A stretch of 64,000 bases of DNA from a virus (IMGVR_UViG_3300043642_000037:92127-156126); one strand, 5' to 3'; positions 233-59,618 are shown, numbered from the stretch's first letter. A program made the numbers and translations. Notes: generated from the letters alone by a model not told the origin.

Positions 233-249
233 TGTTTATCCTATAAACT
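233..249. promoter_or_regulatory. Palindromic site TGTTTA-N5-TAAACT (copy 1)
   Basis: TGTTTA tccta TAAACT in the AT-rich gap between divergent genes. Confidence 0.6.
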
Positions 250-300
250 TTGTAGACATTGCCGCGCGCGTCGTGTAACGGTGCGCAGGAGGTTTTCCGC

Positions 301-2262
301 GTGAACCTTGAGATTCGAGTCGGCGCCGCGGGCAACGGGACGCCCGTGTTCATGGCGACCGGAAGCCACCCGGCGCTGGGTCGCCCGTTCGGGGCGGTCT
401 ACGACTCCGGTCGTCGGCTCTGGATGTACCCGGCGTTCTACCCGGCCTCGAAGAAGGTGCTGGCCGACCTGGACGTGATGTCCAAGGACTTCCACGTCAC
501 GTTCTCCGATGTCGCGCGGCGCCACGTTGGGGATCTCGAGCACGTCGAGGAGAGTGTAGCGAATCGAGCGCTCCCCGTGGGGTTCGAGTACGTGACGCGG
601 CCCTACGATCACCAGGTCCTGGGGCTGTGCCACGCGTGGTGGATGCTTCGTGCCGCGGTGTTCTTCGACCCGGGGCTGGGGAAGTCCAAGATCGCGGTCG
701 ACCTCATCCGGCTGATGCGGCACGTCGGCCGGCGCGGCACGGTCCTCGTCCTTGGCCCCCTGGTCACCGTGACCAACTGGGGTCGGGAGATCGACCGGCA
801 CTCCGGCGGCCAGCTCCGGTGGGTGATCCTTCACGGGTCCCCGGACGAGCGCGCGGACATCCTGTCCTCGATCGTGGAGTCGCCGCCGGACGTCGTGCTT
901 CTCACGTACGACGTGGCCCGCGTGATGTCCGTCGACCTCGTGCGACGGGTGCCGTACGAGGCGATCATATGCGACGAGTCCCATCTGGTGAAGTCGTGGG
1001 ACTCGGGTAGGACGGTCGCGACCTACGACATCGCGCAGAAGGCGTCCCGGCGGGTCCTGATGACGGGGTCCCCGACGCAGGGAGACCCGCGGGACACGTA
1101 CGGCCAGTACAAGATCCTCGGCGACTGCTTCATGCCGGAGGACTACGCGCGGTTCAAGCGCCAGTTCCTGGTGACGCCGAGCCCGCGGTCCCACGCGGTC
1201 ACCGGGTTCAAGAACCTGGACGTGCTGAACGGTCGGGTGACGTTCCTGTCGCTGCGCAAGACGAAGGAGGAGTGCCTCGATCTCCCGGAGCAGGTTGTCG
1301 TGGACGTCCCCTACTCGCTGTCCAGGACGCAGAAGGTGCTGCACAACCAGCTCGTCGAGCAGATGGAGGTCGATCCCGACGTCCTCGCGATCCTCATGTT
1401 CGGGCGACAGGCGACGCTCCCGCCGGCGTCCCGCATGCCGCATCGCGCGGCCATGCTGCTCAAGCTGCTGCAGATCGCGTCCGGGTTCCTCATCACCAAC
1501 CCGATCGACGACGCGTTCTGCGACCAGGCCGAGCCGGGCGGCTGCCGGTACCTCGAGGCCTGCGTGGAGGCCCGGGTTCGCCCGCACACGCCGCGCTGCC
1601 TGGTCGACTCGTCGCGACTTCCCGACGTGCTCACGACGTTCGACGAGAACCCCAAGCTCGACGCGACGGAGGAACTGCTCGAAACAATCCTGGTCAACCC
1701 GACCAACAAGGCGATCATCTGGTGCACGTTCGAGAACGAGCTGAATATCGTGTCCGCCATGCTCGACCGCCGAGGGTGGGGCCACGTCCGCGTCGACGGG
1801 TCCAACAGCCGGGAGGCCCAGGACCTCATCGATCAGTTCACCGTCGACAACGGGCTCCGCGTGTACCTGGCGCAGGTGTCGACCGGCGTCGGCGTGACGA
1901 TCAACGCGGCGTCATACATGATCTACTTCGCGCTCCCGTTCTCGCTGATCGTCTACGAGCAGTCCAAGGATCGAAACTACCGGATCGGGCAGACGCGGAA
2001 GGCCACGGTGTATAGGATGCAGGGCGAGGGGACGCCTGAGCCGGCGATCGCGCGCCTTCTCGACGTCAAGATCGACGTCGACGACGCGCTCACGCGGCGC
2101 ACCGACTGCCTGCGCTGCGAGCACAATCCCACGTGCATTCCGGCGGGCGTTCACCCGTTCGACGCCGGGTGCTCCGTGTACAAGAGAAACATTGACAGAC
2201 CGGTCACGCGAGCCCGCTCGTTCGAGGGGGCCGACGCGCCGGACGAGACGGAGGAACCTTGA
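301..2262 (+). CDS. SNF2/Rad54-family SF2 helicase
   Basis: Motifs FFDPGLGKS (I), DESH (II), MTGSP (III), STGVGVTINAAS (V), QSKDRNYRIGQ (VI). Start uncertain (259, 301 or 352). Confidence 0.9.
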   Translation: MNLEIRVGAAGNGTPVFMATGSHPALGRPFGAVYDSGRRLWMYPAFYPASKKVLADLDVMSKDFHVTFSDVARRHVGDLEHVEESVANRALPVGFEYVTRPYDHQVLGLCHAWWMLRAAVFFDPGLGKSKIAVDLIRLMRHVGRRGTVLVLGPLVTVTNWGREIDRHSGGQLRWVILHGSPDERADILSSIVESPPDVVLLTYDVARVMSVDLVRRVPYEAIICDESHLVKSWDSGRTVATYDIAQKASRRVLMTGSPTQGDPRDTYGQYKILGDCFMPEDYARFKRQFLVTPSPRSHAVTGFKNLDVLNGRVTFLSLRKTKEECLDLPEQVVVDVPYSLSRTQKVLHNQLVEQMEVDPDVLAILMFGRQATLPPASRMPHRAAMLLKLLQIASGFLITNPIDDAFCDQAEPGGCRYLEACVEARVRPHTPRCLVDSSRLPDVLTTFDENPKLDATEELLETILVNPTNKAIIWCTFENELNIVSAMLDRRGWGHVRVDGSNSREAQDLIDQFTVDNGLRVYLAQVSTGVGVTINAASYMIYFALPFSLIVYEQSKDRNYRIGQTRKATVYRMQGEGTPEPAIARLLDVKIDVDDALTRRTDCLRCEHNPTCIPAGVHPFDAGCSVYKRNIDRPVTRARSFEGADAPDETEEP

Positions 2263-2711
2263 AGAACAAGACCACCTACGAGATGAGCGACATCATGGGT
2301 CTCATCACCAGAGACCTCGAGGAGAAGGGTCTCGCGCCCGACTCCGCGTCGGTCGAGATCTGGGGCCGCGTGGACGGAGCCCGCATCAGCGTAAAGGAGA
2401 TCGAGATCGAGGCCAACGTGTCCTGGGTCGGGGTTCCCGAGCAGGGCGATGCCAGGGCCGCCGCGCCCCGGGCGCGCAACCGTCGCGAGCCGGACCTGGA
2501 GGCGGAGCCCGCCCCGCAGGACCTTCTCGATGAAGCGCCCCGACCCGGCGGCGGGCCCGCGCTCGAGATCGGAATCGACGAGGTCACGGCCGCCAGCACT
2601 CGCATCGCGCGGTCGGGCGGGCCAGGTCCGTTCTCGCCGGAGCGCGTGAAGCGCCGGCTGACGGAGGGCGAGTCGACCGAGTATCCGGGCACCACCCCGA
2701 GGGAGCGCTGA
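2259..2711 (+). CDS. hypothetical protein
   Basis: TTG start with GGAGG RBS; overlaps both neighbouring genes. Confidence 0.7.
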   Translation: MKNKTTYEMSDIMGLITRDLEEKGLAPDSASVEIWGRVDGARISVKEIEIEANVSWVGVPEQGDARAAAPRARNRREPDLEAEPAPQDLLDEAPRPGGGPALEIGIDEVTAASTRIARSGGPGPFSPERVKRRLTEGESTEYPGTTPRER

Positions 2712-4404: not shown

Positions 4405-4422
4405 CCGGAGTAACCTGTAGCC

Positions 4423-4999: not shown

Positions 5000-5012
5000 C
5001 CTAGAGGACCTC

Positions 5013-5960
5013 ATGAGCAACGCAACCGAGGAAGAGACGAAGGCGGCGAAGTTCAAGCCGCCGTTCGTGGCGTTCGCCGACATCGAAATCGGCGACAACA
5101 TCAGCGATCAGAAGACGGGACGGATGAAGCTCGACCTCGAGAACTCGGTGGACCTCGAGTTCGCGCTCAGCATCGATCGGGAGGGGTTGATCTCGCCCCT
5201 GGCCGTCCGGGAGGGTGGACCCGCGCGAACCACCGGCAAGCGCAAGGTCGTGCTCGACTGCGGGTACCGCAGGTACGGTGCGATCGGGCTGCTTCGCGAG
5301 AACAAGGTTCCGGGGCAGAAGACGAAGGCGTCGTCCTGGAACCAGATCCCGGTTCGCTACGTGAAGGGCGACGAGGAGGACCAGGACGTCCGGAACCTGG
5401 TGGAGAACCTCCAGCGCCTCAATCTCGACCCCTACCAGGAGGGCGCCGCGATCAAGGCGTACATGGAGAAGCACAAGACGACGCAGACCGAGGTCGCCCA
5501 CCGGCTCGGAAAGTCCGAGCCCTGGGTGTCCCAGCGCCTGTCCATGCTCCGCAACTCCAGCGACGAGGTGAAGCAGGCGTACGACGACGGCATCATCTCC
5601 GCCACGATGGTTCGGGAGATCACGGACCTGCCCAAGGACAAGCAGCCGGGCCTGGTCCAGTCCCTGCGCAAGCAGGCCGCCTCGGGCAAGTATCCGACTG
5701 TCGAGGACGTCAAGGAGGACATCGCCAAGATCCCGTCGCCGAAGAAGAAGACCGGGCGCAAGGCGAACACGTTCGACCAGGACAAGATCCTCCTTGCGAA
5801 GGAGACCTACGCGAACAAGAAGATCATGCCCCGCCCGCGCCTGGCCCTGTTGGAGGTGCTCGGCGCGCTCGTCACGCGCGAGCAGCGTAACGCGACCGAC
5901 AAGACCAAGTACCAGCTCCAGACCATCGAGTACGTGCTCGGCCTACGTGACACCCTGTGA
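5013..5960 (+). CDS. parB: ParB/Spo0J/KorB-family protein (ParB N-terminal CTPase domain + HTH)
   Basis: GLISPLAVR, GYRR arginine patch, ENLQRLNL, HTH TQTEVAHRLGKSEPWVSQRL. Confidence 0.9.
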   Translation: MSNATEEETKAAKFKPPFVAFADIEIGDNISDQKTGRMKLDLENSVDLEFALSIDREGLISPLAVREGGPARTTGKRKVVLDCGYRRYGAIGLLRENKVPGQKTKASSWNQIPVRYVKGDEEDQDVRNLVENLQRLNLDPYQEGAAIKAYMEKHKTTQTEVAHRLGKSEPWVSQRLSMLRNSSDEVKQAYDDGIISATMVREITDLPKDKQPGLVQSLRKQAASGKYPTVEDVKEDIAKIPSPKKKTGRKANTFDQDKILLAKETYANKKIMPRPRLALLEVLGALVTREQRNATDKTKYQLQTIEYVLGLRDTL

Positions 5961-6457
5961 AGCTCGCGGAGTACGTGATGTCCCTGCGCGAGGGCGCGGA
6001 CCCCCGACGGGACGCCTCGTCGGACCCCGTGGCGCGCGAGGTTGTCATCCAGCTTCGCGACCACGCGCCGCCCACGCTCCTGGGGCGGCTCGCGAAGCTG
6101 GATCGCATCGGACTGCTCAACGGCGATGTGCTGATGTCACTGATCGCGCAGGCGCCCATCGATCCGCTCAACCTGTTCGCCACGATCCAGCAGAGCAGCC
6201 CGGGCGAGTGGGCGTTCAGCGGGATCGACTTCGGGGTGGTGCGCGTGCTCGCGCGAAACGCCGCGGGGAACGTCGCCGCCGCGGTGCGCATCGACCTGAT
6301 GGACTCGAGCGTCAGCACGCTGGTCCTCAACCAGGCGGGGCAGCTCACGCCGTTCCGGCGCTACGAGCCCGAGGGGGCGAGGATCCTGGAGCAGGTCCAG
6401 GCGATGTGTGACGCGGCCATCGCCGCCGCCGCTAGGGAGTCTGCGCCGGCTCGCTGA
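5957..6457 (+). CDS. hypothetical protein
   Basis: GTGA overlap with parB; typical codon usage. Confidence 0.65.
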   Translation: MKLAEYVMSLREGADPRRDASSDPVAREVVIQLRDHAPPTLLGRLAKLDRIGLLNGDVLMSLIAQAPIDPLNLFATIQQSSPGEWAFSGIDFGVVRVLARNAAGNVAAAVRIDLMDSSVSTLVLNQAGQLTPFRRYEPEGARILEQVQAMCDAAIAAAARESAPAR

Positions 6458-7313
6458 CCAGCCCGAAGAGCGAAGAGTCGGCCTCGAGGTCGCGGCGAAG
6501 GACGTCGGACTCGAGACTGTGCCGGACGAGGCGGAGCGCGACGACCTTGATTTGGCGCACGCGCTCCGGGGTCATCGACATGATCTTCCCGATCTGCTCG
6601 AGGCTGCGAGGCTCGTCCCTGACGCCGAAGTGGAGGCGAATGATGGTCGCCTCCCGCATCGGTAGCCGGGACAACGCGGCCTCGAGCAGGTCGGAGAGCT
6701 GCTTCGCGTGGTAGTCGCTGGCAATCTCGATCCCGGAGCCAAGCTCCTCGTCGCACACGTCCTCGATGCGCACGACGGGGTAGGTGACGCACTCGACGGC
6801 GGATGCAGCCTCGGAGCGCAGGCCGTGCTGGGTGGCCGCTATCCGCTGGGCGTGCGCCTGCTTGCGCTGCTCCTTCTGCTTGTGTGTGGGGATGTGCACC
6901 GTCGAGCTGGACGCGTAGTCCTGGTCCATCATCTCCTTGTACACCCACGTCCCCGCGTAGGTGAGGAACCGGATGTACGGGGTTCTCTCGGGATTGAAGT
7001 GTCCCGGCTCGATCGCGCGCAGCAGGCCGAGATTGCCCGCGGCGATGTAGTCCTGCAGTGCGTTGCGATCGTTGGTCTTGCGGTGCGCCTGGCGGACCAC
7101 GAAGCGGAGATGGCTCTGGACCACGATGTCCCGGGCCCGCGTGTCCCTGTGCCGCTGCCACAGCCGGATGAAGACCCGCTCCTCCTCGGGGTCCGTCACC
7201 GCCCTGGTGCTTCCTATGCTCGCGTAGTACGAGCGACGGCTGTCTTCCTCATTCGCCAGGCGGCGGACCATGCGAGGACGATCGTGTGTCCTTGGACGGA
7301 AAGACTGGCGCAT
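6432..7313 (-). CDS. sigma-70 family RNA polymerase sigma factor (RpoD/RpoS-like)
   Basis: SHLRFVVRQA, DYIAAGNLGLLRAI, RFLTYAGTWV, region 4 LPMREATIIRLHFG..SLEQIGKIMSMTPERVRQIK. The start may be the ATG at 7271. Confidence 0.92.
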   Translation of the reverse strand: MRQSFRPRTHDRPRMVRRLANEEDSRRSYYASIGSTRAVTDPEEERVFIRLWQRHRDTRARDIVVQSHLRFVVRQAHRKTNDRNALQDYIAAGNLGLLRAIEPGHFNPERTPYIRFLTYAGTWVYKEMMDQDYASSSTVHIPTHKQKEQRKQAHAQRIAATQHGLRSEAASAVECVTYPVVRIEDVCDEELGSGIEIASDYHAKQLSDLLEAALSRLPMREATIIRLHFGVRDEPRSLEQIGKIMSMTPERVRQIKVVALRLVRHSLESDVLRRDLEADSSLFGLVSEPAQTP

Positions 7314-7541
7314 TCAGCTTCGACCACACTAGCGGAGCGAGGCCGCGTCTTCAAGAGGCCTTCCACGCGTGGAACCTCCACGCGCGCCTCACGGCCGGGA
7401 TCGACGCACCGGGGCGGACCCTCGAACGAAACCTAGCCCGCTTGCTTTTACGGCACCCGGGCGCCTAGACTGCGAGACCGAATCAGTCGAAACCATCGAT
7501 TGAGACGATCACAACAACGGAAGTAAGGGAATAAAGGAATC

Positions 7542-16711: not shown

Positions 16712-16728
16712 TGCTTACAGTATAAGCG
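16712..16728. promoter_or_regulatory. Palindromic site TGCTTA-N5-TAAGCG (copy 2)
   Basis: TGCTTA cagta TAAGCG upstream of the exonuclease; the symmetric T>C / A>G pair keeps the dyad intact. Confidence 0.5.
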
Positions 16729-17535: not shown

Positions 17536-19151
17536 AAGACCAGGTCCTTGCACAGCAATCGCCACGCAAACCAGCCGAAAAGTTGTGCGTGAAGCGAATC
17601 ATCAGGGACATTGGGCGGGTGCTGCCAGACCTTGTGACCTGCGCGCGTCACGTTCTCGTACACACTGAGGATGTCGTCGATCGCCGGCTTCATCTGCGCC
17701 TTGTTCACGTAGATCGCCTGCTTGAGCATTAGGAAGCGGGCGAAGTTGTCGATCATCGTCGTGCGATCGACGTGGTAGGCCTGCTTGTCTGGCCGCCAGT
17801 CGAGGGGCTTGCTGAGGTGCATGTAGCGAATCTGCATGACTCGATGCTCGCCGAGCTTCTGCCGCAAGATCGAGTTTGCAAGGGCGCCCTCGCCCTCGTC
17901 GCCGGCGATCATCTGGACGCCCCATGCGTTGCACAGCTCGACGATTTCGTCGACCCAGCCCGTCGCGTGAGCGTTGGGGAAGACCTTATAGAACAACGTC
18001 CTGAGCCGACCGTCCTCCGTCTGACCCCAGATGTGGAGGACGGTTCTCGACTTGAACAGGCCTTCGCTACCCTTCACCTCGCCGCCGCCGCCCGACCAGT
18101 CGACGCCCGAGGCCACCCTGACGATTCCATCCTTGGATCGCGGCATCGGAAGGCGCGTCATGGTGCGCCGCTCGTCACACAGGCCCTCGAGGATCTCCTT
18201 GGTCAGGAGCTTCACGCCCGTCGAGGTGCTGACGGCGATGCACTCGTTGAGGAACTTGGTCTCGCCGTACGACTCCATCTTCCCGAGCATCTCGTCCCAG
18301 TGCTTGACCGCCTTGGCATGCATCGGGCTCGACGTTGGCCAGGCCGCCGGCACGTTACGCGGCATCATCGGCTGGCTGACGTGGAAGCCCTTGATCGTCT
18401 TTCCCGAGCAGAGGTCGATCCAGCGTCCGTCCCTCGGGTTGAGGTTCTTGCCGCACGCGAGGCAGATCGGGCCGTGCTTGCCGAGCGCCTTGACGCCGTC
18501 GATGTACGTGAACTTCGCGCAGCCCGTGCACCGCATGCACCACTCGGTCTGCGACGACCACTGCCACAGCAGCTCGATGGTGTTCTCGCTCGTCTTGGGC
18601 GTGCCCGCGTACATCGAGAACGGGCCGAACTTCGAGTTGCCCATCGACTCCTCGATGACGGGGATGACCTCGTCGTAGAGGATGTCCTGGACCTCGTCGA
18701 ACGCGGTGCGATCGGCCGAGATGCCGCGCGTCCGATCCGGATCGTCCCAGGCGTAGCTGAACGCCATCTCCGAGCCGTTTCGCAGCATCCGATGGAGGAC
18801 GTTGTCGACGGACTCCGGGCTCACGAACGTGCGCTTCAGGTCTGGGCTGTAGGACAGGATCTTGCCGATTCTCGAGTTCGAGAACTTGCAGGTCTGCTCC
18901 TTGCTGGGGCTGATGTAGTAGCACTTGAAGTGCGGGGTGCCGACGCACTCCGCGATCATGAAGCACGCGATGGCGGTGCTCTTCGCGGTCTGCCTTGCCA
19001 TCTTGAGCAGGAGCTTCGCGTAGTCGCCGTCATATATCGCCAGGTGCGTCGGGTAGTCCTCGAGGCTGAACGGGCTGCCCTCGACGTGGAACAGCGCCTG
19101 CGCGATGTCCGACCTATACCCGCTGATAACTTCCCCGGCGACCGCGGTCAC
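17529..19151 (-). CDS. terL: Terminase large subunit, GpA family
   Basis: ARQTAKST Walker A, FDEVQD Walker B, GTP coupling motif, CTGC/CLAC Zn finger, GFHVSQ, nuclease GVDW. Confidence 0.88.
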   Translation of the reverse strand: MTAVAGEVISGYRSDIAQALFHVEGSPFSLEDYPTHLAIYDGDYAKLLLKMARQTAKSTAIACFMIAECVGTPHFKCYYISPSKEQTCKFSNSRIGKILSYSPDLKRTFVSPESVDNVLHRMLRNGSEMAFSYAWDDPDRTRGISADRTAFDEVQDILYDEVIPVIEESMGNSKFGPFSMYAGTPKTSENTIELLWQWSSQTEWCMRCTGCAKFTYIDGVKALGKHGPICLACGKNLNPRDGRWIDLCSGKTIKGFHVSQPMMPRNVPAAWPTSSPMHAKAVKHWDEMLGKMESYGETKFLNECIAVSTSTGVKLLTKEILEGLCDERRTMTRLPMPRSKDGIVRVASGVDWSGGGGEVKGSEGLFKSRTVLHIWGQTEDGRLRTLFYKVFPNAHATGWVDEIVELCNAWGVQMIAGDEGEGALANSILRQKLGEHRVMQIRYMHLSKPLDWRPDKQAYHVDRTTMIDNFARFLMLKQAIYVNKAQMKPAIDDILSVYENVTRAGHKVWQHPPNVPDDSLHAQLFGWFAWRLLCKDLVFY

Positions 19152-22111: not shown

Positions 22112-22134
22112 CCATAAGTATAGGACAGGACACC

Positions 22135-27436: not shown

Positions 27437-30400
27437 ATGGAAGAACTCGCCCTGTTCACCTCACCACCCACGGTGCGAAAGCGCGATGGCGTAACGACGC
27501 AAGCGTTCGACGTCTCTAAAATAATGGTTGCGATACGAAAGGCGTGGGTCGAGGTCGAAGGGGGCGAGCCGAAGCCAGCGGTGCTGCGCGGCGTGGCATT
27601 CAAGGTCGCGCGAGTGCTGGGCGACGAGGAGGTCGAGGTCGAGCGCATCCAGGACGCAGTCGAGACCGCCCTGATGTCGACGGGATGCTTCGCGGTCGCC
27701 AAGGCGTACATCCTGTACCGGCAGAAGCGCGCCGAGGCTCGCCGGGCTCGGCGGGCTCTGGACCCGAGCGCGATCGCCAACTACATCCACGCAAGCAAGT
27801 ACGCCCGGTATCAGCCGTCCCTGCTTCGTCGCGAGGTCTACGAGGAGACCGTGGCCCGAGTCGAGGCGATGCACCTGCGGAGGTACGGGGGCATCCCGGG
27901 CATGCGCGAGGAGATCGCGTGGGCGTTCGGCCTGGTCCGCGACAAGCGCGTCCTGCCGTCGATGCGCTCGATGCAATTCGGCGGCGCGGCGATCGAAACC
28001 ACCCACAACAGGATGTACAACTGCTCGTTCACGCTCGTCGACAGGACGCGGGCGTTCGCCGAGGCGATGTTCCTGCTGCTGTCTGGCTGCGGTGTGGGCT
28101 ACTCAGTCCAGTTTGAGCACGTTGGCAAACTTCCTCGGATCGGCTACGTCGACGAGAAGCGCGTCGTGCACCACGTCGTCGCGGACACGATCGAGGGGTG
28201 GGCCGACGCCATGGACGCACTGGTCGCGAGCTACGTCGAGGGCACGCACGTCGAGTTCTCGTACCATCTTATCCGACCTGCGGGGTCTCCGCTGAAGACG
28301 TCGGGTGGTCGCGCGCCCGGGCACATCAAGCTCAAGGCCGCGCTCGAATCGATCCGTCACGTGCTTCACGGAGCGCAGGGCCGGAAGCTCCGCCCGATCG
28401 AGTGCCATCGCATCCTGTGCCACGCGGCCGGCGCGGTGCTGTCCGGCGGGATTCGACGATGCTTGCCTGCAGGCACCCTCGTGCACCTGTCGCGAGGTCT
28501 TGTTCCAATCGAGAATGTACGTGTCGGTGATGTTGCTCGCACAGGAACTGGCTGGTCCCGTGTAACTGACACGATCACGCAAGGCAAGCAGCCGCTCGTA
28601 CGTATCACGACACAGATGGGACTCTTTGAGTGCACGGCCAACCATCGGGTAGCCGTGCTGGTCTCAACCGGTGCGTACGCGTGGAAAACAGCAGGCACAC
28701 TGGAGCAAGGAGATAGACTTGTATTCGTCGAGCATGTCGTGGAAGGTTCAACCACGGAACTACCACTATGGCACTACGAGCGCTTGGAAAGCGACCATAC
28801 GAGCGTGAACATTCAAGTTCCCAACCTGGACAACGATGTTGCATGGTTATTGGGCTACCTACATGGCAATGGCTATGTACACGTGAATCGAACGTCCAAA
28901 GACGGTGGATCCAACGTTGTTTCGTTCTCGATGAACGACTCTGACGCGGAAACCGCAGCCCGCGTGCATCGGCTGAGATCAACGCTGGCTCGGTTCGGTG
29001 TCAGTGTGCGCGATGCTAAATTAGAGGGCGAGAATACACGAAGAGTATCAGCAGCAAGCAAACAGCTCGCGCTCTATTTCGAATACTTCAAACGACCTAG
29101 TCAGCATCTGCAGGTTCCCACCTGCATTCTGGAAGGTAAACCAGCTCTGCGGGCAGCTTATCTTGCAGGGTTATTTGACGCAGATGGCGCCGCAGGTAAT
29201 CGTCCGATTCTACTCGTCGCGTCCGTGTATCCTCGCTTCTTGGCGCAAGTCCAAGCAGTCTACGCCAGCCTCGGAATCGTGACACGTCTCAAGCTAAATC
29301 GCCCAGAAGACGGACAATGGCAAGCTTTGTGGCATTTGGTGCTCGTCGGAGAGCTGCCCCGCTCCGTATTCGACGCCCGGGTCGCACCTCATGCATTGAA
29401 GCGAGCTACTGAACGCGTAGGCTCTCAGTTCGACTACGGTTACCCGCGCGCATTCATATTGTCTGAGAATGTCAACTACGATAAGCGCTGGAGCCCGACA
29501 AGCCAGCAAATGACTGCAGGCACATTCGAGCGGTGCGGCGGTGACCGACGCGGACTCCTGCCTGTCGCTGTCATCGGAGTCGAGGTTAACGTCCGTGAGG
29601 ACGAAACCTTCGACCTCTCAATCGAAGACAACCATGAATTCGTAGTCAATGGTCTTCTCGTCCACAACAGCGCCATGATCTCGCTATTCTCTTCCGACGA
29701 CGGTGAGATGATGGTGTGCAAGACCGGCGACTGGTGGAAGGAGAATCGCGAACCGTACTTCGCCTACGCCAACAACTCGGTTGCGCTGCTGCGCCACGAG
29801 ACGAAGGAGGCGCAGTTCAAGCGCGTGTTCGAGATGATCCGCGAGTTCGGCGAGCCGGGCTTCGTGTTCCTCGAGCAGAGCCACTACGGGACAAACCCGT
29901 GCGCCGAGATTGGCCTCGACCCGGTGCTCGAAATCGACGTGTCTCTCCTGGACAAACGTCTGGCAAAGGACGACGCGTTCGATGGTCGAGAAACGATGCA
30001 GTACGTCGCGGACAAGGGACGCGGAACCAAGGTCACAGGCTGGGCATTCTGCAACCTCTGCGAGATCAACGCTGCGAAGCTAACCTCGTTCGAAGACTTC
30101 GTCGAGGCTGCCCGTGCGGCAACACTTATCGGCACGCTGCAGGCGGGCTACACCAGCTTCCCGTACCTGGGTTTTGCCAGTGAGCTGATCGCGAGGCGAG
30201 ACGCGCTGCTCGGCATCGGCATGACGGGCATGCTCGACGCGCCTCACATCTCGTGCAACCCCGAGTACCAGCGCGCGATCGCCGGGCGGATCAAGGAGTG
30301 GAACGCCGACTACGCGGCCCAGATCGGCATCAACCCGGCGGCGCGCACGACGTGCGTCAAGCCCAGCGGCACGACGTCTCTCGAGCTGGGGAGCGTCGGC

Positions 30401-30964: not shown

Positions 30965-30976
30965 TAAACATTGAGC

Positions 30977-31186
30977 ATGCAAACATGCAGCAACTGTAAC
31001 GATTCGTTCGATGACTCCAAAGACGGTCTCGTCGTCACTGGCAAAGGCAAGCACGTGGCCGCCATCTGCGGCGCGTGCTGCGCCGACGTTCGCGTGGGAA
31101 AGATCGTGGTCCGCCGTCCGGACCACGGAGGCTATGTCTACGATCAGTGGTTACCCACCGAAGTGATGGGTGGAGCGGCGGGCTAA
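30977..31186 (+). CDS. small zinc-binding hypothetical protein
   Basis: CSNC and CGAC motifs. Confidence 0.55.
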   Translation: MQTCSNCNDSFDDSKDGLVVTGKGKHVAAICGACCADVRVGKIVVRRPDHGGYVYDQWLPTEVMGGAAG

Positions 31187-33594
31187 CCTATGCCTTCAGC
31201 AACGTAAAACACTGCACGGTGAATTTTGGTTGGCGTGCCGCTATTGAATACGTTGCTGTGTACGTATGCAATATATCTATAATCCACAATCGAAGCTGAA
31301 TCGAATAATCCTGGGCTGGTTATGTTTACAGTGTCTCTAGTGGTAGTGTGCCATTTAGTACCGTCGCACCATATCGGTGATCCGTAAGCTTTACGGGGAA
31401 TACCACCACCCGGTGTTAGAGGCGTAATTCCACCGCCTACTTCGAGAGTTTCTAGTCCCACGCGCTTGAAAGATGGCGAGGCGCCATTTGTTATCAAATT
31501 AACAGGGGGAAATATAGAGTCTCCAAAACCTGAAGATTCAAACATTGTTTCGATAAAACCTAGGGCACTATTTCCCTGCTCGCTTACCAAGCCTACGCCA
31601 ATTAGACGACCTCGGTTAGTTGGGCATGGAATAATTACTCGATCTTGTTGAGACGTTAATGCACTGATGTTTCGAATATTTCGCTTAAACCCTGGATTGC
31701 CACCTGCAATAACATCTCCCGCCTTACCAGACAATGTCCACGCATCGTCATTGTACATCATGTTTACAGGGTACACTGTGTATACTTTGACACCGAGCGG
31801 CATTCGTTGATCGTGAACTACTGCAGTCGTATCCAGATACAAATCACCATTAAAGGGGCCAGTCCCTGTATAGTTCTTTCCGGATACTACGTAACAGATC
31901 GGCACAAATCCGGTATCAGGAGCGGGGTACGCCGGTATAGCTCCCGGCGTGCCTGTTTTTACGTTTACAGTTGCACTAACCACGCTTGACGGTGAGACAC
32001 CCGTCCATTGAAGTCGGATTTGAATCAGATCCGCTCTTGGATTGACGCCATTGCCGTTAGCAATAGTGAATTGGTCAGTACCAGGAAGCGTAAACGAAAT
32101 AAACGTGGCCTGTGGACTGCTCGGCACACGCTGGAAAACAGTGCCGGATGATATCCGAACAATATTATTCGAAGATCCCTGTATTGGAATACCTGCACTT
32201 ATCGTAGCTGCGTAACACCATTCAGTGCCTGTTCCATCGGAACCTGCAGTTACGTTTCGCATCTCAGGGTTCGCGGCGGCCCCTAAGTCACCGGGCACGA
32301 GTTGAGCGGCGAGTCCATCAAGAAGGCGTACTGCGTTCTGGTTCTTCGTGTCGTTGATGAGCGTGATCAAGCTACCGATCTGAGCAAATAACGTGCCTGC
32401 AGGAACATCAGACGTAGGGCCTGCAGCAGCCCCCGCGATCTTCGCCGTTCCCGATCCGGATCCGAGGTCCGTTATGATCTTGTCGAGCTGAGTCTCGACA
32501 GACGCAGCGGGGTTAGTGGTTCCATCGGCCCAGTTGGGCCCACCGCTGTACGTGATACCCTGCGCCGACCCGCTCAAGGGGAAGTTGACTGCGCCCGCAG
32601 GGACTTCAATGCCCGTACCGAACACTAATTTGCTCAAGAGCACTTTGCAGACGGGTAACGCGTTGACCAAAAACTCTGGATGAACCCGGCTGTTGAACAG
32701 TGACCCCGCAGGCACAGAGGTGTTGCTGTTTTCGACAAGAGACTGTCGCCGCCCTCCTGTGGAGGCGAGGTCAGTCATCATGTCATAGCGAATGCATAGC
32801 GTATCACCCTCAGCCAGGGCCTGTGTCGGATTGCTGGCGAAGAAGCCCGACATCGTAGCTGGAACGATCTGGTGACCTTCCGCGTCATAGTTGCCTGTAA
32901 CTAGTTGCCGAGCCTGCGGAACGAGAAGGAAGTCGCCCGACGATGCTCCGCCTTCGAGCGCCGCGGTCACAAGTTGTGTGTTGTCCGGGGCAGGAGGAAT
33001 TAGCCCGTTGAGCGCAGTGATCACAGCACCTAGTGTGGTGGTTCCCGTAGCCACGATCTTAATCGTTCTTCGGAGCCCAATCTCGACGTCGAGCGCGCAC
33101 GAGAACGAAGCACCAGACACCACGGTTACGTTGATTTGATCGCCAGCAGCATAACTCCGGCGTCGGCTTGTCACCGAAATAGCGTTCGCACTGTCGCTGG
33201 ACCGCTTGAGATGTAAGACACCGAAGAAAGATGCGATAGGCAAAGCCCCAAGGCCTCCCTGTAGAGTGCCCGGCGTGAGTATGGGTACCAGCCAGAGCGT
33301 GTTGGTGAGCACGGGAATTCCGCTTGCAGAAGTTGTAGTACTGCCCGGCCACGTGATCCCACCAAGGCAGAACGCGACGAAGTTGCGGTCCGAGTCGCGG
33401 AGATACAGCGAGTCCGTCATGACGTCGCGGATGGCCTCGGTGCGCTGGCGCAGGCTCTCACTCGGGCGCGCGAGGACCGTCCCGCTCACGCCCTCGCCGT
33501 CAGCCATCGGCTGGATGCTCGCAGCGTTGTTCTCGCCAGTGTCGTTGTTGGTGTTGCCCGTGAAGTCGACGAACTGCTTTACGTTTCCTGACAT
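31183..33594 (-). CDS. Tail fibre / receptor-binding-like virion protein
   Basis: Last gene of the baseplate block; Gly/Thr/Ser/Asn-rich; AT-rich distal part. Confidence 0.65.
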   Translation of the reverse strand: MSGNVKQFVDFTGNTNNDTGENNAASIQPMADGEGVSGTVLARPSESLRQRTEAIRDVMTDSLYLRDSDRNFVAFCLGGITWPGSTTTSASGIPVLTNTLWLVPILTPGTLQGGLGALPIASFFGVLHLKRSSDSANAISVTSRRRSYAAGDQINVTVVSGASFSCALDVEIGLRRTIKIVATGTTTLGAVITALNGLIPPAPDNTQLVTAALEGGASSGDFLLVPQARQLVTGNYDAEGHQIVPATMSGFFASNPTQALAEGDTLCIRYDMMTDLASTGGRRQSLVENSNTSVPAGSLFNSRVHPEFLVNALPVCKVLLSKLVFGTGIEVPAGAVNFPLSGSAQGITYSGGPNWADGTTNPAASVETQLDKIITDLGSGSGTAKIAGAAAGPTSDVPAGTLFAQIGSLITLINDTKNQNAVRLLDGLAAQLVPGDLGAAANPEMRNVTAGSDGTGTEWCYAATISAGIPIQGSSNNIVRISSGTVFQRVPSSPQATFISFTLPGTDQFTIANGNGVNPRADLIQIRLQWTGVSPSSVVSATVNVKTGTPGAIPAYPAPDTGFVPICYVVSGKNYTGTGPFNGDLYLDTTAVVHDQRMPLGVKVYTVYPVNMMYNDDAWTLSGKAGDVIAGGNPGFKRNIRNISALTSQQDRVIIPCPTNRGRLIGVGLVSEQGNSALGFIETMFESSGFGDSIFPPVNLITNGASPSFKRVGLETLEVGGGITPLTPGGGIPRKAYGSPIWCDGTKWHTTTRDTVNITSPGLFDSASIVDYRYIAYVHSNVFNSGTPTKIHRAVFYVAEGIG

Positions 33595-40196: not shown

Positions 40197-40408
40197 CGAC
40201 GCGCTCCGATCCAGCGGTAGGACGACCACCAGCCGGTCAGCGGAACGACCCAGCGGAGCAGCGAGAACGACACGACGTCGTCCGCGGCGATCTCGCGATC
40301 CCACCAACGCCTGCGCTGGTCCGGCCGGCGGACGTGCGTGAACGACACCTGGAGGCGCACGCAGAACCACTGCAGCACGACGAAGTTGAGCAGGCCCAGC
40401 AGACTCAT
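40193..40408 (-). CDS. small Trp-rich hypothetical protein
   Basis: ATGA overlaps on both sides. Confidence 0.55.
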   Translation of the reverse strand: MSLLGLLNFVVLQWFCVRLQVSFTHVRRPDQRRRWWDREIAADDVVSFSLLRWVVPLTGWWSSYRWIGARR

Positions 40409-41160
40409 CGCTTCCCTTTCTGCACGTCCGAGACGTGCGCGATCAGCTTCGCTTTCTGATACGAGTAGATACCTTGCGTCAGACCGAGCTTTTTTTGGAT
40501 TTCGTTGTTTGAGAGTACCTCAGACCCCGCGTACCCCGTCAAATGCTCGAAGATCGCCTTCTGGACCGGCGGCAGACCGTGGTGGACGAAGTCCAGCGTG
40601 TGGTCCTGTCGCTCGTCCTCGTGCAACCCGGAGGCGCCGGAGTCGTCGTGACCGCCGGACTCCAGCAGCTCCCGCCGGCCGATCGATCGGCGGAACTCCT
40701 CGACGCGCGGAATGGACCATCCCAGCTCGTCGGCCATCTCGTCGGTGGTCGGCGACCGTCCAAGCTCGTCCCCCAGGCGCGCGCTCGCCTTGTGGTAGGC
40801 GTGAAACCACAGCATTTTGTTCTCGGGCAGCCGGGCCACGTTCTGGTTGGCGTACGCGAGCCTGCTCATCCGCTGCAGCTGGTTGACGACGTGCGTGCCG
40901 AGCGCGGCGCCCTTGCCGGGGTCGTAGCCGTGGAACGCCTGCATCGCCAGGCGCTTGCCCTCGGTCTCGAGTAGCGGGCGGGCCATCGTCTGGTCCCACT
41001 TCGACGCCTCGCGCGAGATCAACGGCGAGATCTGGGCGAGCAGCGCTGAGGCCGCGGCGTCGGACGGATTCCTCCTCCACGCGCGCCACAACACGAGGTC
41101 GCGCTCCGCCTTCGTCTCCTCTGCGGCCTTCGCGAGCCTTGCGATCTTGTCTAGCGTCAT
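40405..41160 (-). CDS. sigma-70 family sigma factor (FliA/SigF-like), probable late sigma
   Basis: True start ATG at 41160 (MTLDKIARL); AFHGYDPGKGAALGTHV, VARLP, LGRSPTTDEMADELGWS, LPPVQKAIFE. Confidence 0.82.
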   Translation of the reverse strand: MTLDKIARLAKAAEETKAERDLVLWRAWRRNPSDAAASALLAQISPLISREASKWDQTMARPLLETEGKRLAMQAFHGYDPGKGAALGTHVVNQLQRMSRLAYANQNVARLPENKMLWFHAYHKASARLGDELGRSPTTDEMADELGWSIPRVEEFRRSIGRRELLESGGHDDSGASGLHEDERQDHTLDFVHHGLPPVQKAIFEHLTGYAGSEVLSNNEIQKKLGLTQGIYSYQKAKLIAHVSDVQKGKR

Positions 41161-50765: not shown

Positions 50766-50829
50766 CGTGAATCCTCGCTCCCCTTTGGTAGAAGCATCGG
50801 TGAGCCGAACCCTATCACGACGCCCAGCT

Positions 50830-50846
50830 TGTTTACCGAATAAACA
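50830..50846. promoter_or_regulatory. Palindromic site TGTTTA-N5-TAAACA (copy 3, perfect arms)
   Basis: TGTTTA ccgaa TAAACA between the divergent chaperone and DinG genes. Confidence 0.65.
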
Positions 50847-50867: not shown

Positions 50868-52931
50868 ATGCGCGACGCCATAGCCCTGCTGTCGGATCCG
50901 TCGCAGGGACTCGTGCGGGAGATCCGCCCTCCTCAGATCACGATGGCCGAGAACGTTGGCCGCGTCCTCGCGACCGGAGGGACCTACTTCGTCGAGGCGG
51001 GGGTGGCGACCGGAAAGACCTTCGCATACATGCTGCCCGCGCTACTCGAGCCGCGCCGTCGGATCGTCATCGCCACGGCGAAGAAGCAGCTGCAGGATCA
51101 GATCGTCACCAAGGACATCCCGGCGCTCGCCCGGGCGCTCGGCCAGGACCTCCAGGCGGTGCTTATCGACGCTGAGGGCCGCCCACAGATCGTGTCGACT
51201 TCGCGCAAGGGCAACGGCAACTACGCGTGCCGCGTGCTCGCGCAGGAGCGCAACCCTGGCCCGGTCTACATGCGATTCCTGGCCGACAGCCGGCACGGGG
51301 ACCGGGCCGACTACGACGGCGCCGCGCCGCAGTGGTGGCCGGAGGCCTCCGCGGAGGACTGCGTCGGACGCAGGTGCCCCCAGGCGGGGGACTGCGGCTA
51401 CATGCGGATGAAGAAGGAGATGGCCCAGTCGAAGATCGTGGTGATCAACCACCACGTGCTCGGCGTGGAGATGCGCTTCGGCCAGGGTCGGCTCGTCGGC
51501 GGGCCCTACGACGTCCTGATCGTCGACGAAGCGCACAAACTCGCCGACGGCGTGCGCGGAGCCTTCACCACGCGAATGTCCCGCAAGGTGGTCGAGCAGA
51601 TCAGCGAGCAGCTGAACGGGACGTTCAGCACGTTCCCAAGGAACGCCGCGCTCGTCCGCGTGTGGGGCGAGCTATTCGACCGGGTGCCGAACGCGCACTG
51701 GCGCGAGCCCCACCTGCGCGAGGTCCCCGTGTTCGGCGACGACGAGGAGGCGACCAGCGCGGCCTTCGTCGCGCTGGACGAGGCCTGGACGGAGGTCAAC
51801 GGCACCCTCGAGCGGTTCGGTCTCGGCGAGGACCAGGACGAGGCCGAGATCGACGACTACAGCCCCGACCTGCAGAAGGACTTGTCGGTGATGATCCGCT
51901 CGCGGCGGAAGCTCGACGACCTGACGCGCGGGCTCCAGCTCGCGCAGGGTCGCGTGCCGCGCAGGAAGGCCGAGGAGGACGAGGAGTACGAGCAGCGCCG
52001 GGCGAGGATTCTGGGCTCCACGGCGATCTACGGCAGCAACGAGGAGCGCTTCGGCTTCCAGCTGTACTGCTCCCCGGTGCGGCTCGACGGCATCATGGGC
52101 TCGTTCTTCGGCGGCGTGAAGACCAAGGTCCTGACCAGCGCGACCCTGGCGATCAACGGGTCGTTCGCGCACCTCGAGCAGATGACCGGAATCAAGCCGG
52201 ACATCGTCGACGTGCTCGCCAGCCCGTTCGACTACGACTCGCAGGGCTTCGTGTACGTCCCCAAGGACGCCGCGCAGGTCCCCAGGGGACCCCGCAACGC
52301 CACCGACGAGGAGAACCGACCCTACCTCGACGCGCTCAAGCTCCGCGTGGACCGCGCCGTCCGCCTGATCGAGTTGTCGAACGGCGGCGCGTTCGTGCTG
52401 ACCACGGCCAACGAGGAGCTGGACGCGTTCGCGCGTGCGCTGAAGGCCCGCTTCCCGGGCCGGACGTTCGCGCAGGGGCACAGGAACAACGAGTGGGACG
52501 GGGACCCGCCGGCGGCGCTGGACAAGTTCCGCGGCGTGGAGAACTCGATTCTCATCGGCAGCAAGTCGTTCTGGGAGGGCGTCGACGTCGTCGGCGGCGC
52601 GCTTCGCCTGGTCATCATCGCGAAGCTGCCCTTCCCCCAGGTCAACGACCCGATCGTCAAGGCGCGGGAGAAGCTGTCGACGAACCCGTTCGCCGAGGTG
52701 CAGATGGCGGACATGCTGATCGATCTCCGGCAGGGCAGCGGCCGGCTGATTCGATCGAGGGACGACAGGGGCTGCCTGGCGATCCTCGACAACAGGATCT
52801 GGACCAAGCGGTACGGCGGCACGGTGCTTCAGGCGCTCCCCTGGTCGCGAGGGCTCGTGACCACCGACGTCGTCATGTGCGAGCGGTACCTCCCCCTCTT
52901 CGCGAAGCACTTCGCACGCAAGGCGGTCTGA
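50868..52931 (+). CDS. dinG: DinG/YoaA-family Fe-S DNA helicase
   Basis: EAGVATGKT, NYAC..DCVGRRCPQAGDC, DEAH, TSATL, SFWEGVDV, QGSGRLIRS. Confidence 0.92.
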   Translation: MRDAIALLSDPSQGLVREIRPPQITMAENVGRVLATGGTYFVEAGVATGKTFAYMLPALLEPRRRIVIATAKKQLQDQIVTKDIPALARALGQDLQAVLIDAEGRPQIVSTSRKGNGNYACRVLAQERNPGPVYMRFLADSRHGDRADYDGAAPQWWPEASAEDCVGRRCPQAGDCGYMRMKKEMAQSKIVVINHHVLGVEMRFGQGRLVGGPYDVLIVDEAHKLADGVRGAFTTRMSRKVVEQISEQLNGTFSTFPRNAALVRVWGELFDRVPNAHWREPHLREVPVFGDDEEATSAAFVALDEAWTEVNGTLERFGLGEDQDEAEIDDYSPDLQKDLSVMIRSRRKLDDLTRGLQLAQGRVPRRKAEEDEEYEQRRARILGSTAIYGSNEERFGFQLYCSPVRLDGIMGSFFGGVKTKVLTSATLAINGSFAHLEQMTGIKPDIVDVLASPFDYDSQGFVYVPKDAAQVPRGPRNATDEENRPYLDALKLRVDRAVRLIELSNGGAFVLTTANEELDAFARALKARFPGRTFAQGHRNNEWDGDPPAALDKFRGVENSILIGSKSFWEGVDVVGGALRLVIIAKLPFPQVNDPIVKAREKLSTNPFAEVQMADMLIDLRQGSGRLIRSRDDRGCLAILDNRIWTKRYGGTVLQALPWSRGLVTTDVVMCERYLPLFAKHFARKAV

Positions 52932-52932
52932 C

Positions 52933-53181
52933 ATGAGCGCGAACCCGTACGAGACTTTCATCAAGCAGCTGAAGGCTGTACGGGTCGCGCGCGGGCTCAC
53001 CCAGCAGCAGCTCGCCGACAGGGTCAGGCTGTCGCGCCCGCAGTACGCGGCGATCGAGCACGGCAGGTCCACCGCGAGCTTCAGGCACGTGCACAACCTG
53101 GCCATCGCCCTCGACGTTCACTGGATAATCGGACACCCCGGATGCCCGCGCGCGGATCGCGTGGTTCGAGAAGGCGCGTGA
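52933..53181 (+). CDS. XRE-family HTH regulator
   Basis: LKAVRVARGLTQQQLADRVRLSRPQYAAIEHG. Confidence 0.88.
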   Translation: MSANPYETFIKQLKAVRVARGLTQQQLADRVRLSRPQYAAIEHGRSTASFRHVHNLAIALDVHWIIGHPGCPRADRVVREGA

Positions 53182-54045: not shown

Positions 54046-54046
54046 C

Positions 54047-56280: not shown

Positions 56281-56290
56281 TGGGCCTCTT

Positions 56291-56701: not shown

Positions 56702-56886
56702 CAGGCGGCCTTGACAGCCTGCTCGAGACCATCCGCGAGGACCCGGGCGCGCTCGGCCGCCCGCTGTGCCTTTCCGCCACGGGGGAACCGCGTCAGCTCG
56801 TCTGCCATGCGACGAGCCTTCGCGGCGTTGAGCCGCGTGCGCCGCGTGATCTGAGCGATCGCGGCCACTCTCTTGTCGACATTCAT
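56701..56886 (-). CDS. small basic hypothetical protein
   Basis: Coupled to the downstream gene; start uncertain (56886 or 56898). Confidence 0.5.
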   Translation of the reverse strand: MNVDKRVAAIAQITRRTRLNAAKARRMADELTRFPRGGKAQRAAERARVLADGLEQAVKAA

Positions 56887-56920
56887 CGGTCGTGCCATCG
56901 GGTGCCCTCCGTCCTGGAGG

Positions 56921-56937
56921 TGTTTACCCAGCAAACA
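56921..56937. promoter_or_regulatory. Palindromic site TGTTTA-N5-CAAACA (copy 4)
   Basis: TGTTTA cccag CAAACA between divergent genes. Confidence 0.55.
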
Positions 56938-56980
56938 ACAGTCCGAAGCTTGAGTCAATCAAGCAAACCAGGAGATTCAA

Positions 56981-58414: not shown

Positions 58415-58748
58415 GTGCCTCCGATGCGGCAACGTCGAGGACCTCGAGGCGGTGGGCGCGTCCGCGTACTGCCTGCCGTGTCGCACGTGCCCTCACGGGC
58501 GGATCTGGATCGAGACGTGGACGCCGGCGTGCGCGGCGTGCGTGCTCGCAGTTCACACCGTGAAGACCCAGACAGGTCTTCGGGTCAGGGACCTCGAGGC
58601 CTACCTGGCCGACGTCGCTCGGTACCGAATCGACACCATGGCCCACGCGTTCGACGAGTGGGAGCGGATCGGGGAACGGACGACCTACGGCGACGGCCTG
58701 GATGTCGAGGTCGACTGGCCGTTCCATTTCACGCTGACGGGACACTAA
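58380..58748 (+). CDS. Cys-rich hypothetical protein
   Basis: CLRC, CLPCRTCPHG, CAAC; start uncertain. Confidence 0.5.
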   Translation: MPRRRRPTREPECLRCGNVEDLEAVGASAYCLPCRTCPHGRIWIETWTPACAACVLAVHTVKTQTGLRVRDLEAYLADVARYRIDTMAHAFDEWERIGERTTYGDGLDVEVDWPFHFTLTGH

Positions 58749-59590
58749 CTCATCCGATCGCCAAAATGCTCTGTGTCGAACTCCTTGCGGTATTGTGACC
58801 AGCCAAAAAAGTTGCCGCTTCGCGCAGGCTCTGAAAGCGCCATCGCAACGTGCTCGAACGGAGACCAGTGACCAGGTTCGCCGGTCGCCGGCCCCGAGCA
58901 CAGCCTGTCGTGCAGCTCGACGTCCTTGTCCGAATCGCGAACGCCCGCGTGTGTCAGGTACGACACGCGGGCGCAGCGCCCGGTCGAGACCTTCTTGGCT
59001 CGGGTGATCGCCTGGTCGGTATCAAGCGGACCTTCACGAACCTCGTCGAATAGTGGCAGATGCCACTGGCCGAACGACATTGGCGTAGGCTGATGTTCGT
59101 TGTACTGCTGCCACATGGCCTTCGCAATCCACGCGATCTCCGGCTGGGCCATGCGGTGGTTGCGCAGGTGAAACCAGTTGCTGTACTCGGTCGCGGAGAC
59201 GAGGACCGTGATGAACATCCACGGCTCGATGAGCCGGTTCGCGAGCTGCTTGTGGAGCCCGACCTTGCCGAGCTGCTCGACGGCCGCGAGCATCTGGTCC
59301 CGCGCGACCAGCCAGAGGCGCTCGGCCTCGGCCCGCGAGGCGCCGTCCAGCTCCTCGTTCGCCTGCATGCCGGACTGGTTCCTGCCCCACCACTGGGGCA
59401 GCGCGGGGTCCTCCCGGACCCGGGCCATCAGCCTCTCGGTGGGGATCGCGCGGCTGGACGCGCTGTTTCGGCTGAACATCCGGTGCGTCATCAGCTCGGC
59501 GTGGACGAACCGCGGGTAGGTAAGTTCCCAGGTGGTCAGCCGCTTGCCGCACGGGGCGAGCGAATCCTTCAAGACGCGTGTCGAATACAT
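58745..59590 (-). CDS. thyX: Flavin-dependent thymidylate synthase (phage long form)
   Basis: ELMTHRMFSRNSASSRA, HKQLANRLIEP, LRNHRMAQPEI, RCARVSY, HWSPFEH; ATG at 59590 follows GGAGG. Confidence 0.9.
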   Translation of the reverse strand: MYSTRVLKDSLAPCGKRLTTWELTYPRFVHAELMTHRMFSRNSASSRAIPTERLMARVREDPALPQWWGRNQSGMQANEELDGASRAEAERLWLVARDQMLAAVEQLGKVGLHKQLANRLIEPWMFITVLVSATEYSNWFHLRNHRMAQPEIAWIAKAMWQQYNEHQPTPMSFGQWHLPLFDEVREGPLDTDQAITRAKKVSTGRCARVSYLTHAGVRDSDKDVELHDRLCSGPATGEPGHWSPFEHVAMALSEPARSGNFFGWSQYRKEFDTEHFGDRMS

Positions 59591-59601
59591 AAATCCTCCG
59601 C

Positions 59602-59618
59602 TGTTTATCTTATAATCA
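59602..59618. promoter_or_regulatory. Palindromic site TGTTTA-N5-TAATCA (copy 5), overlapping TATAAT
   Basis: TGTTTA tctta TAATCA in the 45-bp gap between thyX and the divergent gene. Confidence 0.55.

Follow-up and report, generated by a model that had tools for sequence, protein, structure and literature searches.

A dispersed 17-bp dyad of the form TGTTTA-N5-TAAACA recurs at gene starts in the virus record IMGVR_UViG_3300043642_000037 and in related phages from soil. The DNA analysed here, referred to as the window, is the final 64 kb of this single 156,126-bp record (G000; 66% GC; 84% completeness according to CheckV), and a window position is converted into a genome coordinate by adding 92,126. 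The dyad is enriched over background and conserved among relatives, its halves are arranged symmetrically, its orientation is not fixed, and it co-occurs with a gene for a small XRE/Cro-type helix-turn-helix (HTH) protein that directly follows the gene for a DinG-type helicase. With moderate confidence, we interpret the motif as the operator of a dimeric, sequence-specific DNA-binding protein, most likely this DinG-adjacent XRE protein, at ~15–30 transcription-unit starts per genome; both the identity of the binder and the repressive sign of its effect are what we infer from sequence features.

A conserved dyad at gene starts

Five matches to the motif were found in the window at ≤2 mismatches, compared with 0.07 in shuffled sequences, and the whole 156-kb record contains ten such matches plus the copy at window position 16712 described below. 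When a matrix built without G000 was applied at a threshold of 12 bits, the 18.5 kb of intergenic DNA in G000 (58% GC) yielded 22 strand-hits, compared with 0.64 ± 0.84 (maximum 4) in first-order Markov shuffles of the identical intergenic segments, and the 137.6 kb of coding DNA used as a control yielded 4 matches. The shuffles, the coding-DNA control and the training of the matrix without G000 exclude an artefact of chance or of AT-rich intergenic DNA.

The four whole relatives, soil phages G001–G004 (157–188 kb, 45–80% protein identity), hold 22–34 copies each, often at the starts of orthologous genes; G004 is complete, with direct terminal repeats and a CheckV completeness of 100%. The pattern TGTTTAYNNNNNNANCA at ≤1 mismatch returned 21–30 matches per relative, compared with 0–3 for the reversed pattern, and a 21-nt matrix refined on the five genomes located 128 sites, 17 of them in G000, with 0–7 for the column-reversed control. 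A de novo search for dyads in the intergenic DNA of this soil clade gave GTTT-N7-AAAC and TTTA-N5-TAAA as the top signals. Similarly, profiling of every GTTTAY hexamer showed that a second half appears at intergenic copies only and at a fixed spacing, in the form a-[T/G]-GTTTAY-c-nn-R-Y-A-A-A-C-a. The great majority of the sites (109 of 128) are intergenic and 107 of these 109 flank a gene start; across the five genomes, a site is present at 26 of 75 divergent junctions (35%), 6.7% of tandem junctions and 2.8% of convergent junctions. Conserved targets comprise the genes for Dam, DNA polymerase, the DnaQ exonuclease, the XRE protein, a 78-aa protein and a 69-aa Cys-rich protein, together with the portal/SNF2, terminase/MoxR, 208-aa/DinG and dNMP-kinase/477-aa junctions and the gap between a sigma factor gene and a 366-aa gene. 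The candidate phage-wide regulon of the first-pass annotation is supported, as a set of sites, by this enrichment over an AT-matched intergenic background, by the conservation in relatives and by the regulon-like distribution at gene starts.

The five copies named in that annotation, at 233, 16712, 50830, 56921 and 59602, are all present in short gaps adjoining start codons and have a variable 5-bp spacer, and Pfam matches confirmed the four divergent junctions assigned to them (233, portal homologue/SNF2; 50830, 208-aa gene/DinG; 56921, dNMP-kinase operon/477-aa gene; 59602, thyX/182-aa gene). The list itself required amendment, as the copy at 16712 falls below the threshold and two copies had been missed, one strong and conserved (30954–30970, 23.4 bits) and one weak (291–307, 15.7 bits). 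The solid copies in the window are thus those at 233, 30954, 50830, 56921 and 59602. The first, TGTTTATCCTATAAACT (233–249, 28.3 bits), occupies the divergent gap between the genes for the portal homologue and the SNF2 helicase (259–2262), has an orthologous site in G001–G004 and places its GATAAACA half 5 nt from the portal ATG; the weak dyad GGTTTTCCGCGTGAACC, assigned to the same gap, is not conserved as such and is doubtful. The strong dyad at 30954, which lies on the minus strand and reads CGATTGTGTGATAAACA on the plus strand, overlaps the stop codon of a ribonucleotide-reductase-like gene and ends 6 nt before the ATG of the 69-aa Cys-rich gene (30977–31186), for which an orthologous dyad is found 6–7 nt upstream in G002–G004 and 30 nt upstream in G001. 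The perfect palindrome TGTTTACCGAATAAACA (50830–50846, 25.0/23.1 bits) separates the divergent 208-aa and DinG genes and heads the DinG–XRE operon. The dyad TGTTTACCCAGCAAACA (56921–56937, 20.2 bits), between the dNMP-kinase operon and the 477-aa gene, has orthologous sites in G001–G004, and TGTTTATCTTATAATCA (59602–59618, 21.9 bits), between thyX (58745–59590, minus strand; Thy1 Pfam match) and the 182-aa gene (59636–60184), has the same site in G010, a 93%-identical relative.

The marginal copy TGCTTACAGTATAAGCG (16712–16728, plus strand) is located upstream of the DnaQ-type exonuclease gene and consists of a half-site fused to a GTATAAGC -10-like box. In relatives, this gene is preceded by GGTATAAGCT at ~20 nt and by a separate dyad at 51–57 nt, while G001 has the fused form as in G000. 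Because the copy joins a half-site to a conserved -10-like box, the symmetric change within it, which had been read as compensatory, does not count as evidence of pairing.

The core of the motif is GTTTAY-N3-RTAAAC, or 17 bp when the outer T and A are counted, and its half-sites are 11 bp apart, corresponding to one helical turn. The strong half is near-invariant in the soil clade (G 98%, T 92%, T 98%, T 100%, A 93%, then Y) and the weak half is degenerate, often reading CCAACA, CAAGCA, CAATCA or TAAACA; near-symmetric sites account for 16 of the 109 intergenic copies. The gene start lies only on the side of the strong half at 53 of the 107 sites that flank a start, only on the side of the weak half at 22 and on both sides at 32. 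At the most asymmetric sites, the strong half points toward the gene in 20 cases versus 7, so that a bias of ~70:30 persists, and the orientation is not fixed. The strong half switches side even between orthologs, as at the DNA polymerase gene (G001 and G003 versus G002 and G004) and at the XRE gene (G002 versus the rest).

A homologous motif was found in a distant clade consisting of G008 (L065–L073) and G009 (L074–L083), in which DinG is 32% identical. Each of these genomes contains 21 exact copies of TTTAC-N3-GTAAA (42 in total), compared with ~0.06 per genome expected from base composition, and a de novo dyad search in them returned TTAC-N3-GTAA and TTTA-N5-TAAA as the top signals. No excess of complementarity was detected outside the 5+5 core of these copies (15 pairs at the next position compared with 13.3 expected), and the signal is therefore sequence-specific rather than structural. 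A hairpin such as an N4-type promoter hairpin, a cruciform or an RNA stem-loop was rejected on the grounds that the halves in the soil clade are mostly non-complementary and that the distant clade lacks covariation beyond the core. Seventeen of the 42 copies are intergenic and 25 lie within called genes, some of them at the matching place in orthologous genes. At three distant-clade loci an exact palindrome lies ~220–380 nt upstream of DinG, and a dyad in the gap upstream of DinG thus recurs in both clades. An exact dyad is also contained in the RNase HII coding sequence of all three distant-clade contigs (G008 38646, G009 96117 and L063 4002), where it encodes V-V-Y-x-V-N; this could be a site conserved within the gene or a coincidence of the coding sequence. 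Given the exact, sequence-specific palindrome, the lack of structural covariation, the unfixed orientation and the variable placement, the dyad fits better as a predicted site for a symmetric protein dimer than as a promoter or a hairpin.

Candidate binding proteins

The XRE/Cro-type HTH protein of G000 is 82 aa long (52933–53181, plus strand), matches HTH_3 (7e-12) and a PHROG transcriptional repressor family, and has the controller proteins C.BclI (E 2e-5) and C.AhdI (E 4.5e-4) as its nearest solved relatives. It is encoded at the end of an operon that is opened by the DinG-type helicase (50868–52931, plus strand; Helicase_C_2 and DEAD matches, and synteny). A gene for an XRE protein of 68–82 aa directly follows DinG in each of the ten motif-bearing genomes that were searched, and likewise in 22 of 22 additional loci where the DNA continues past DinG. 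The HTH, TQAQVA..I.LSRxQYxxIExGxS, and with it the recognition helix LSRxQYxxIExGxS, does not vary between the two clades, although their XRE proteins have only ~40% overall identity. Of 17 further soil-clade loci with DNA upstream of DinG, 16 have a site there, and all tested soil-clade loci carry a dyad either within ~55 nt upstream of DinG–XRE or directly before XRE, except for L118, which lacks a DinG-upstream site and stops short of XRE. The XRE gene is always located downstream of a dyad. Where it abuts DinG, the DinG-upstream dyad serves the operon, and where the two genes are separated by a gap of at least 40 nt, an extra dyad lies in that gap. The other conserved small proteins tested yielded no recognisable sequence-specific HTH. 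The first-pass annotation had named the XRE protein and a bidirectional promoter as alternatives to a ParB-type binder; the co-occurrence and the invariant helix make the former the best fit, whereas the latter is weakened by the unfixed orientation and position of the sites.

In the mechanism that we propose, XRE dimers would bind the dyads scattered across the genome. Since the dyads overlap -10-like boxes or lie at short or absent leaders, a bound dimer would be expected to hinder the polymerase: positioned over or beside -10-like boxes, leaderless starts or early transcribed DNA, it could block the phage RNA polymerase. In this way, DNA-metabolism genes, one sigma-factor gene and some morphogenesis junctions would be tuned or shut off in a timed manner, and the DinG–XRE operon would be autoregulated through its own upstream dyad.

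Several observations weigh against this interpretation. In the two very distant outgroups, Salmonella phage Arash and Vibrio phage D69, both motif patterns are absent and no XRE protein was detected, but this co-occurrence has low power because DinG itself is undetected in both (tblastn), which leaves approximately one evolutionary contrast; many proteins, including DinG, are undetectable at such a distance when phyletic profiling against these outgroups is used to search for a binder. An XRE gene downstream of a dyad would be equally expected if the dyad were a promoter. Moreover, the strong half in the soil clade, (G)ATAAAC, lies 4–6 nt before many ATGs that lack a Shine-Dalgarno (SD) sequence, which is the -10 geometry of the CCTATAATT class of upstream elements described below, and it may itself be a -10 element. 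Sites within genes, such as 25 of the 42 copies in the distant clade, are not usual for a Cro-like repressor and are closer to ParB, Noc or KorB class III sites. Finally, other conserved small proteins of unrecognised fold could bind the dyad.

The last two points also bear on a binder other than XRE, that is, an unrecognised protein of the phage or the host, or on a role at the level of the DNA itself, such as genome organisation, a landmark for replication or packaging, or a site of nuclease action or modification. Intragenic copies are common in the distant clade, where some share their position in orthologous genes, the fold of several conserved small proteins is not recognisable, and the regulon mixes genes of replication, nucleotide metabolism and morphogenesis. 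Nevertheless, we consider such an explanation unlikely, as the soil-clade sites are overwhelmingly intergenic and flank gene starts, they are rare in convergent gaps, and the consistent link to DinG–XRE would be left unexplained.

The first-pass annotation had favoured the phage ParB/KorB-type protein, with the dyads as its operators or parS-like sites from which it would spread or repress. The protein encoded at 5013–5960 (plus strand) does match HTH_ParB (5e-11) and KorB (3.6e-7) in Pfam as well as Noc/ParB families in NCBIfam, and Pfam and profile searches revealed diverged ParB-like genes in G001, G002, G003, G006, G008 and G009, at other loci, and none in Arash or D69. In G008 and G009, a dyad lies 37–44 nt past the parB stop codon and, as noted above, many copies are intragenic. 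The reference sequence of parS is TGTTNCACGTGNAACA and that of the KorB operator OB is TTTAGCSGCTAAA; the TTTA-N5-TAAA geometry of the dyad is that of the KorB operator and its outer TGTT/AACA arms recall parS, with agreement to the two references confined to these outer arms and the geometry. Against this, a six-frame search with the family profile and with Pfam detected no ParB-like frame in the complete genome of G004 despite its 30 sites, and tblastn found no counterpart of the G000 ParB at the same locus in G001–G004. The ParB-like proteins are very divergent, with no blastp similarity between G000 and G001 and 31% identity between G000 and G008, and the recognition helices of the six ParB-like proteins differ at nearly every position, while GTTTA is 92–100% conserved. 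In G000, no dyad lies within 4 kb of parB, and a separate perfect 14-bp parS-like palindrome, TTCCACGCGTGGAA (7361–7374), is found 1.4 kb past the end of parB in the divergent gap between the sigma factor gene and the 366-aa gene, as a single exact copy in the window. This palindrome is a closer parS look-alike than the dyad and the more likely target of ParB. Relatives carry a dyad in that gap instead. Taken together, these results make it very unlikely that ParB is the protein that binds the dyads.

Promoter-like elements and the placement of sites

The lineage encodes a bacterial-type RNA polymerase and two sigma factors. The first, an RpoS/RpoD-like member of the sigma-70 family with regions 2 and 4 (6432–7271, minus strand; Pfam and NCBIfam), borders the divergent gap mentioned above. 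The second, a diverged factor of the virion module (40405–41160, minus strand; Sigma70_r3), is 33% identical to gp10 of Arash, the nearest cultured relative of the lineage, whose virions contain RNA polymerase and the sigma factor gp10 (PMC10585845). As to a sigma-28-like reading of GCGATAAAC, the virion sigma factor has only a marginal FliA/WhiG match (E 0.003).

A second class of upstream element, CCTATAATT in relatives and CCTATACTT or CCTATCATT in G000, was revealed by the enrichment of upstream hexamers. It precedes the ATG or GTG start by 6–8 nt, mostly at structural genes, and 31 of 33 genes behind it have no SD. Examples are located at window positions 22119–22127 (minus strand) and 19116–19123 (plus strand) and at genome coordinates 44123, 49674, 60533 and 85807. 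Its position before SD-less genes suggests that this class is probably a -10-only promoter of leaderless late mRNAs. G008 and G009 keep CCTATACT and additionally have an abundant GGTATAAG box with leaders of 23–40 nt, often right after T-run terminators (TTTTTGG); the soil clade retains the GGTATAAG box upstream of the DnaQ exonuclease gene (window 16719–16727). The palindromes of the distant clade are distinct from the GGTATAAG and CCTATACT boxes and lie upstream of the boxes, within leaders or abutting start codons. A further element, CCTTGTACCAA, is positioned a few nucleotides before the ATG of the 208-aa gene divergent from DinG; it is kept in both clades (L006, L007 and L009 at ~2890–2930; G009 at ~98710) and has diverged in G000 (window ~50780–50800).

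The distance from site to start codon ranges from -1 to >50 nt and falls into three classes, namely -1/0, often with GAGG or AGGA in the spacer, 4–9 nt without an SD and 10–60 nt with an SD; the gene calls come from an in-house codon-usage caller that was not validated, and starts within a few nucleotides of the motif (the -1/0 class) are uncertain. A cluster at 4–6 nt from the ATG fits leaderless starts, and the association of the dyad class with SD-less genes is blurred by purine-rich spacers within the motif. Overall, the sites show no shift toward the downstream start relative to the upstream stop (37 versus 36). Some of them take up the -35 position relative to a CCTATCATT or TAGGGT box. 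One orthologous set has the dyad 3 nt upstream of a CCTATCATT box, and in front of the Dam gene of three relatives a TAGGGT box, 6 nt away from the GTG start, is preceded by the dyad at 8 nt. A high-scoring dyad, GGTTTATGACGCAAGCA, includes a start codon in G004 (65397), G002 (81997), G003 (80542) and G001 (83753), where the ATG at motif positions 6–8 starts a conserved M-T/S-Q-A..QKP frame that was overlooked by the gene caller.

This arrangement raises the question of whether the motif is instead a promoter class used by the phage RNA polymerase together with one or the other of the two sigma factors. The invariant (G)ATAAAC would then serve as a -10-like element yielding leaderless mRNAs or mRNAs with a short leader, the GTT of the other half would be an upstream element, and perfect palindromes at divergent junctions would fire both ways. 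Consistent with such a role, many genes have the strong half 4–9 nt upstream and no SD, as in the CCTATAATT class, and at the Dam gene of G000 the motif fills the whole 28 nt between a T-run terminator and the ATG; the strong half faces the gene at a ratio of 53:22, divergent junctions are enriched in sites, and the phage has the polymerase and sigma factors that would be needed. However, the orientation is loose even for strongly asymmetric sites and is flipped between orthologs, and the distance to the ATG varies widely, with an SD sometimes within the spacer, so that transcription must begin upstream. In some orthologs the site occupies the -35 region of another -10 box, and the 5-bp gap between the halves does not match -35/-10 geometry. 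In addition, the homologous motif of the distant clade is an exact palindrome, distinct from the boxes there, with 60% of its copies within called genes. We regard a promoter class as rather unlikely.

A combination of the two functions can also be envisaged, in which the 17-mer is a promoter–operator module whose invariant half would act as a leaderless -10 element for a phage sigma holoenzyme, while the dyad partner would let one small regulator silence the class, or perfect palindromes would fire both ways. If the strong half, with the ATAA core of TATAAT at a leaderless distance, doubled as a -10 element, this would explain both its better conservation and its 70% gene-facing bias. We put this forward tentatively and think it rather improbable; if true, an entire lineage of phages that has hardly been described would be using a compact transcription code.

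Genomic context and comparison with known systems

Other genes identified in the window by Pfam and NCBIfam matches encode a primase, a family A DNA polymerase with a UDG domain, the DnaQ-type exonuclease, the large terminase, RNase HII and the dNMP kinase (DNMK Pfam match). The ATP-cone (ribonucleotide-reductase-like) gene, whose stop codon is overlapped by the dyad at 30954, spans 27437–30964 and is split by an intein that carries a LAGLIDADG homing endonuclease. The gene is housed, together with an 803-aa open reading frame (31183–33594, minus strand) that has no Pfam match, in a low-GC island at ~27.4–33.6 kb (57–60% GC). The record ends (window 63092–64000) just past a GP88-family gene, and in G001 and G003 a ParB-like gene lies ~0.7 kb beyond the ortholog of this gene, which indicates that the 156-kb record is truncated. 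The sampling covers two clades and the two outgroups. A megablast search of INPHARED returned no match, a metagenome scan recovered soil-clade relatives only and no further deep lineage, and a search for the motif strings in the searchable literature library gave no match.

The c repressor of phage phiC31 binds 17-bp conserved inverted repeats (CIRs), and Cluster A mycobacteriophages have dispersed stoperators. The present system resembles both in having tens of short sites, nearly all within short gaps between genes and at gene starts, and one small phage HTH regulator, which is predicted here. The phiC31 CIRs are likewise 17-bp dyads. The sequence of the present motif is unrelated to either. 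The Cluster A stoperators, in contrast, are asymmetric and strictly oriented, whereas the sites described here are dyads of mixed orientation. Furthermore, phiC31 and the Cluster A phages are temperate and their sites serve immunity repressors, whereas no lysogeny module was seen here and the phage encodes a multisubunit RNA polymerase and two sigma factors of its own.

A second likeness is to the lambdoid Cro/CI operators and the C-boxes of C.AhdI and C.BclI, where a small dimer of the XRE type, the candidate in our case, recognises pseudo-palindromes of 14–18 bp in which one half follows the consensus and the other departs from it, and where the operon of the regulator is under its own control. 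Those systems have 2–6 operators at one locus, whereas 15–30 sites are distributed genome-wide here and no tandem OL/OR pair of fixed spacing was seen; the identity of the XRE protein to C proteins is low and confined to the HTH. The RK2 KorB–OB, ParB–parS and Noc–NBS systems share with the dyad a 13–17 bp palindrome with TTTA...TAAA arms, a location at promoters and, in the distant clade, within genes, and a ParB-family gene in most genomes. They differ in the sequence of the site, and the ParB-like gene here is absent from one complete relative, while those of the other relatives are not orthologous and their products differ in the recognition helix; the likeness to KorB–OB is one of geometry only.

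In phage T4, middle promoters carry the MotA box TGCTTtA and the late promoter is TATAAATA. The half-site TG(C/T)TTA(C/T) is similar to the MotA box, as is the use of a short phage-specific motif just upstream of many genes, and the strong half has an ATAA core at a suitable distance, as in leaderless -10-only promoters. Unlike the T4 promoters, however, the motif has dyad symmetry, a spacer of 5 bp rather than ~12 and no fixed orientation or distance, and a separate -10 class, CCTATAATT/CCTATACTT, is already present.

These comparisons show that one small repressor with many scattered operators is familiar from other phages, and that what is new here is a probable instance of it in a barely described lineage. 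For this lineage, the analysis provides three cis-elements, namely the dyad, the CCTATAATT/CCTATACTT leaderless class and the GGTATAAG class, as well as XRE and the dyad as a candidate regulator–site pair, whose core regulon consists of genes for DNA replication and nucleotide metabolism. In addition, it corrects an attractive but unsupported ParB/KorB reading and offers an entry point into the transcription programme of an almost undescribed lineage with its own RNA polymerase.

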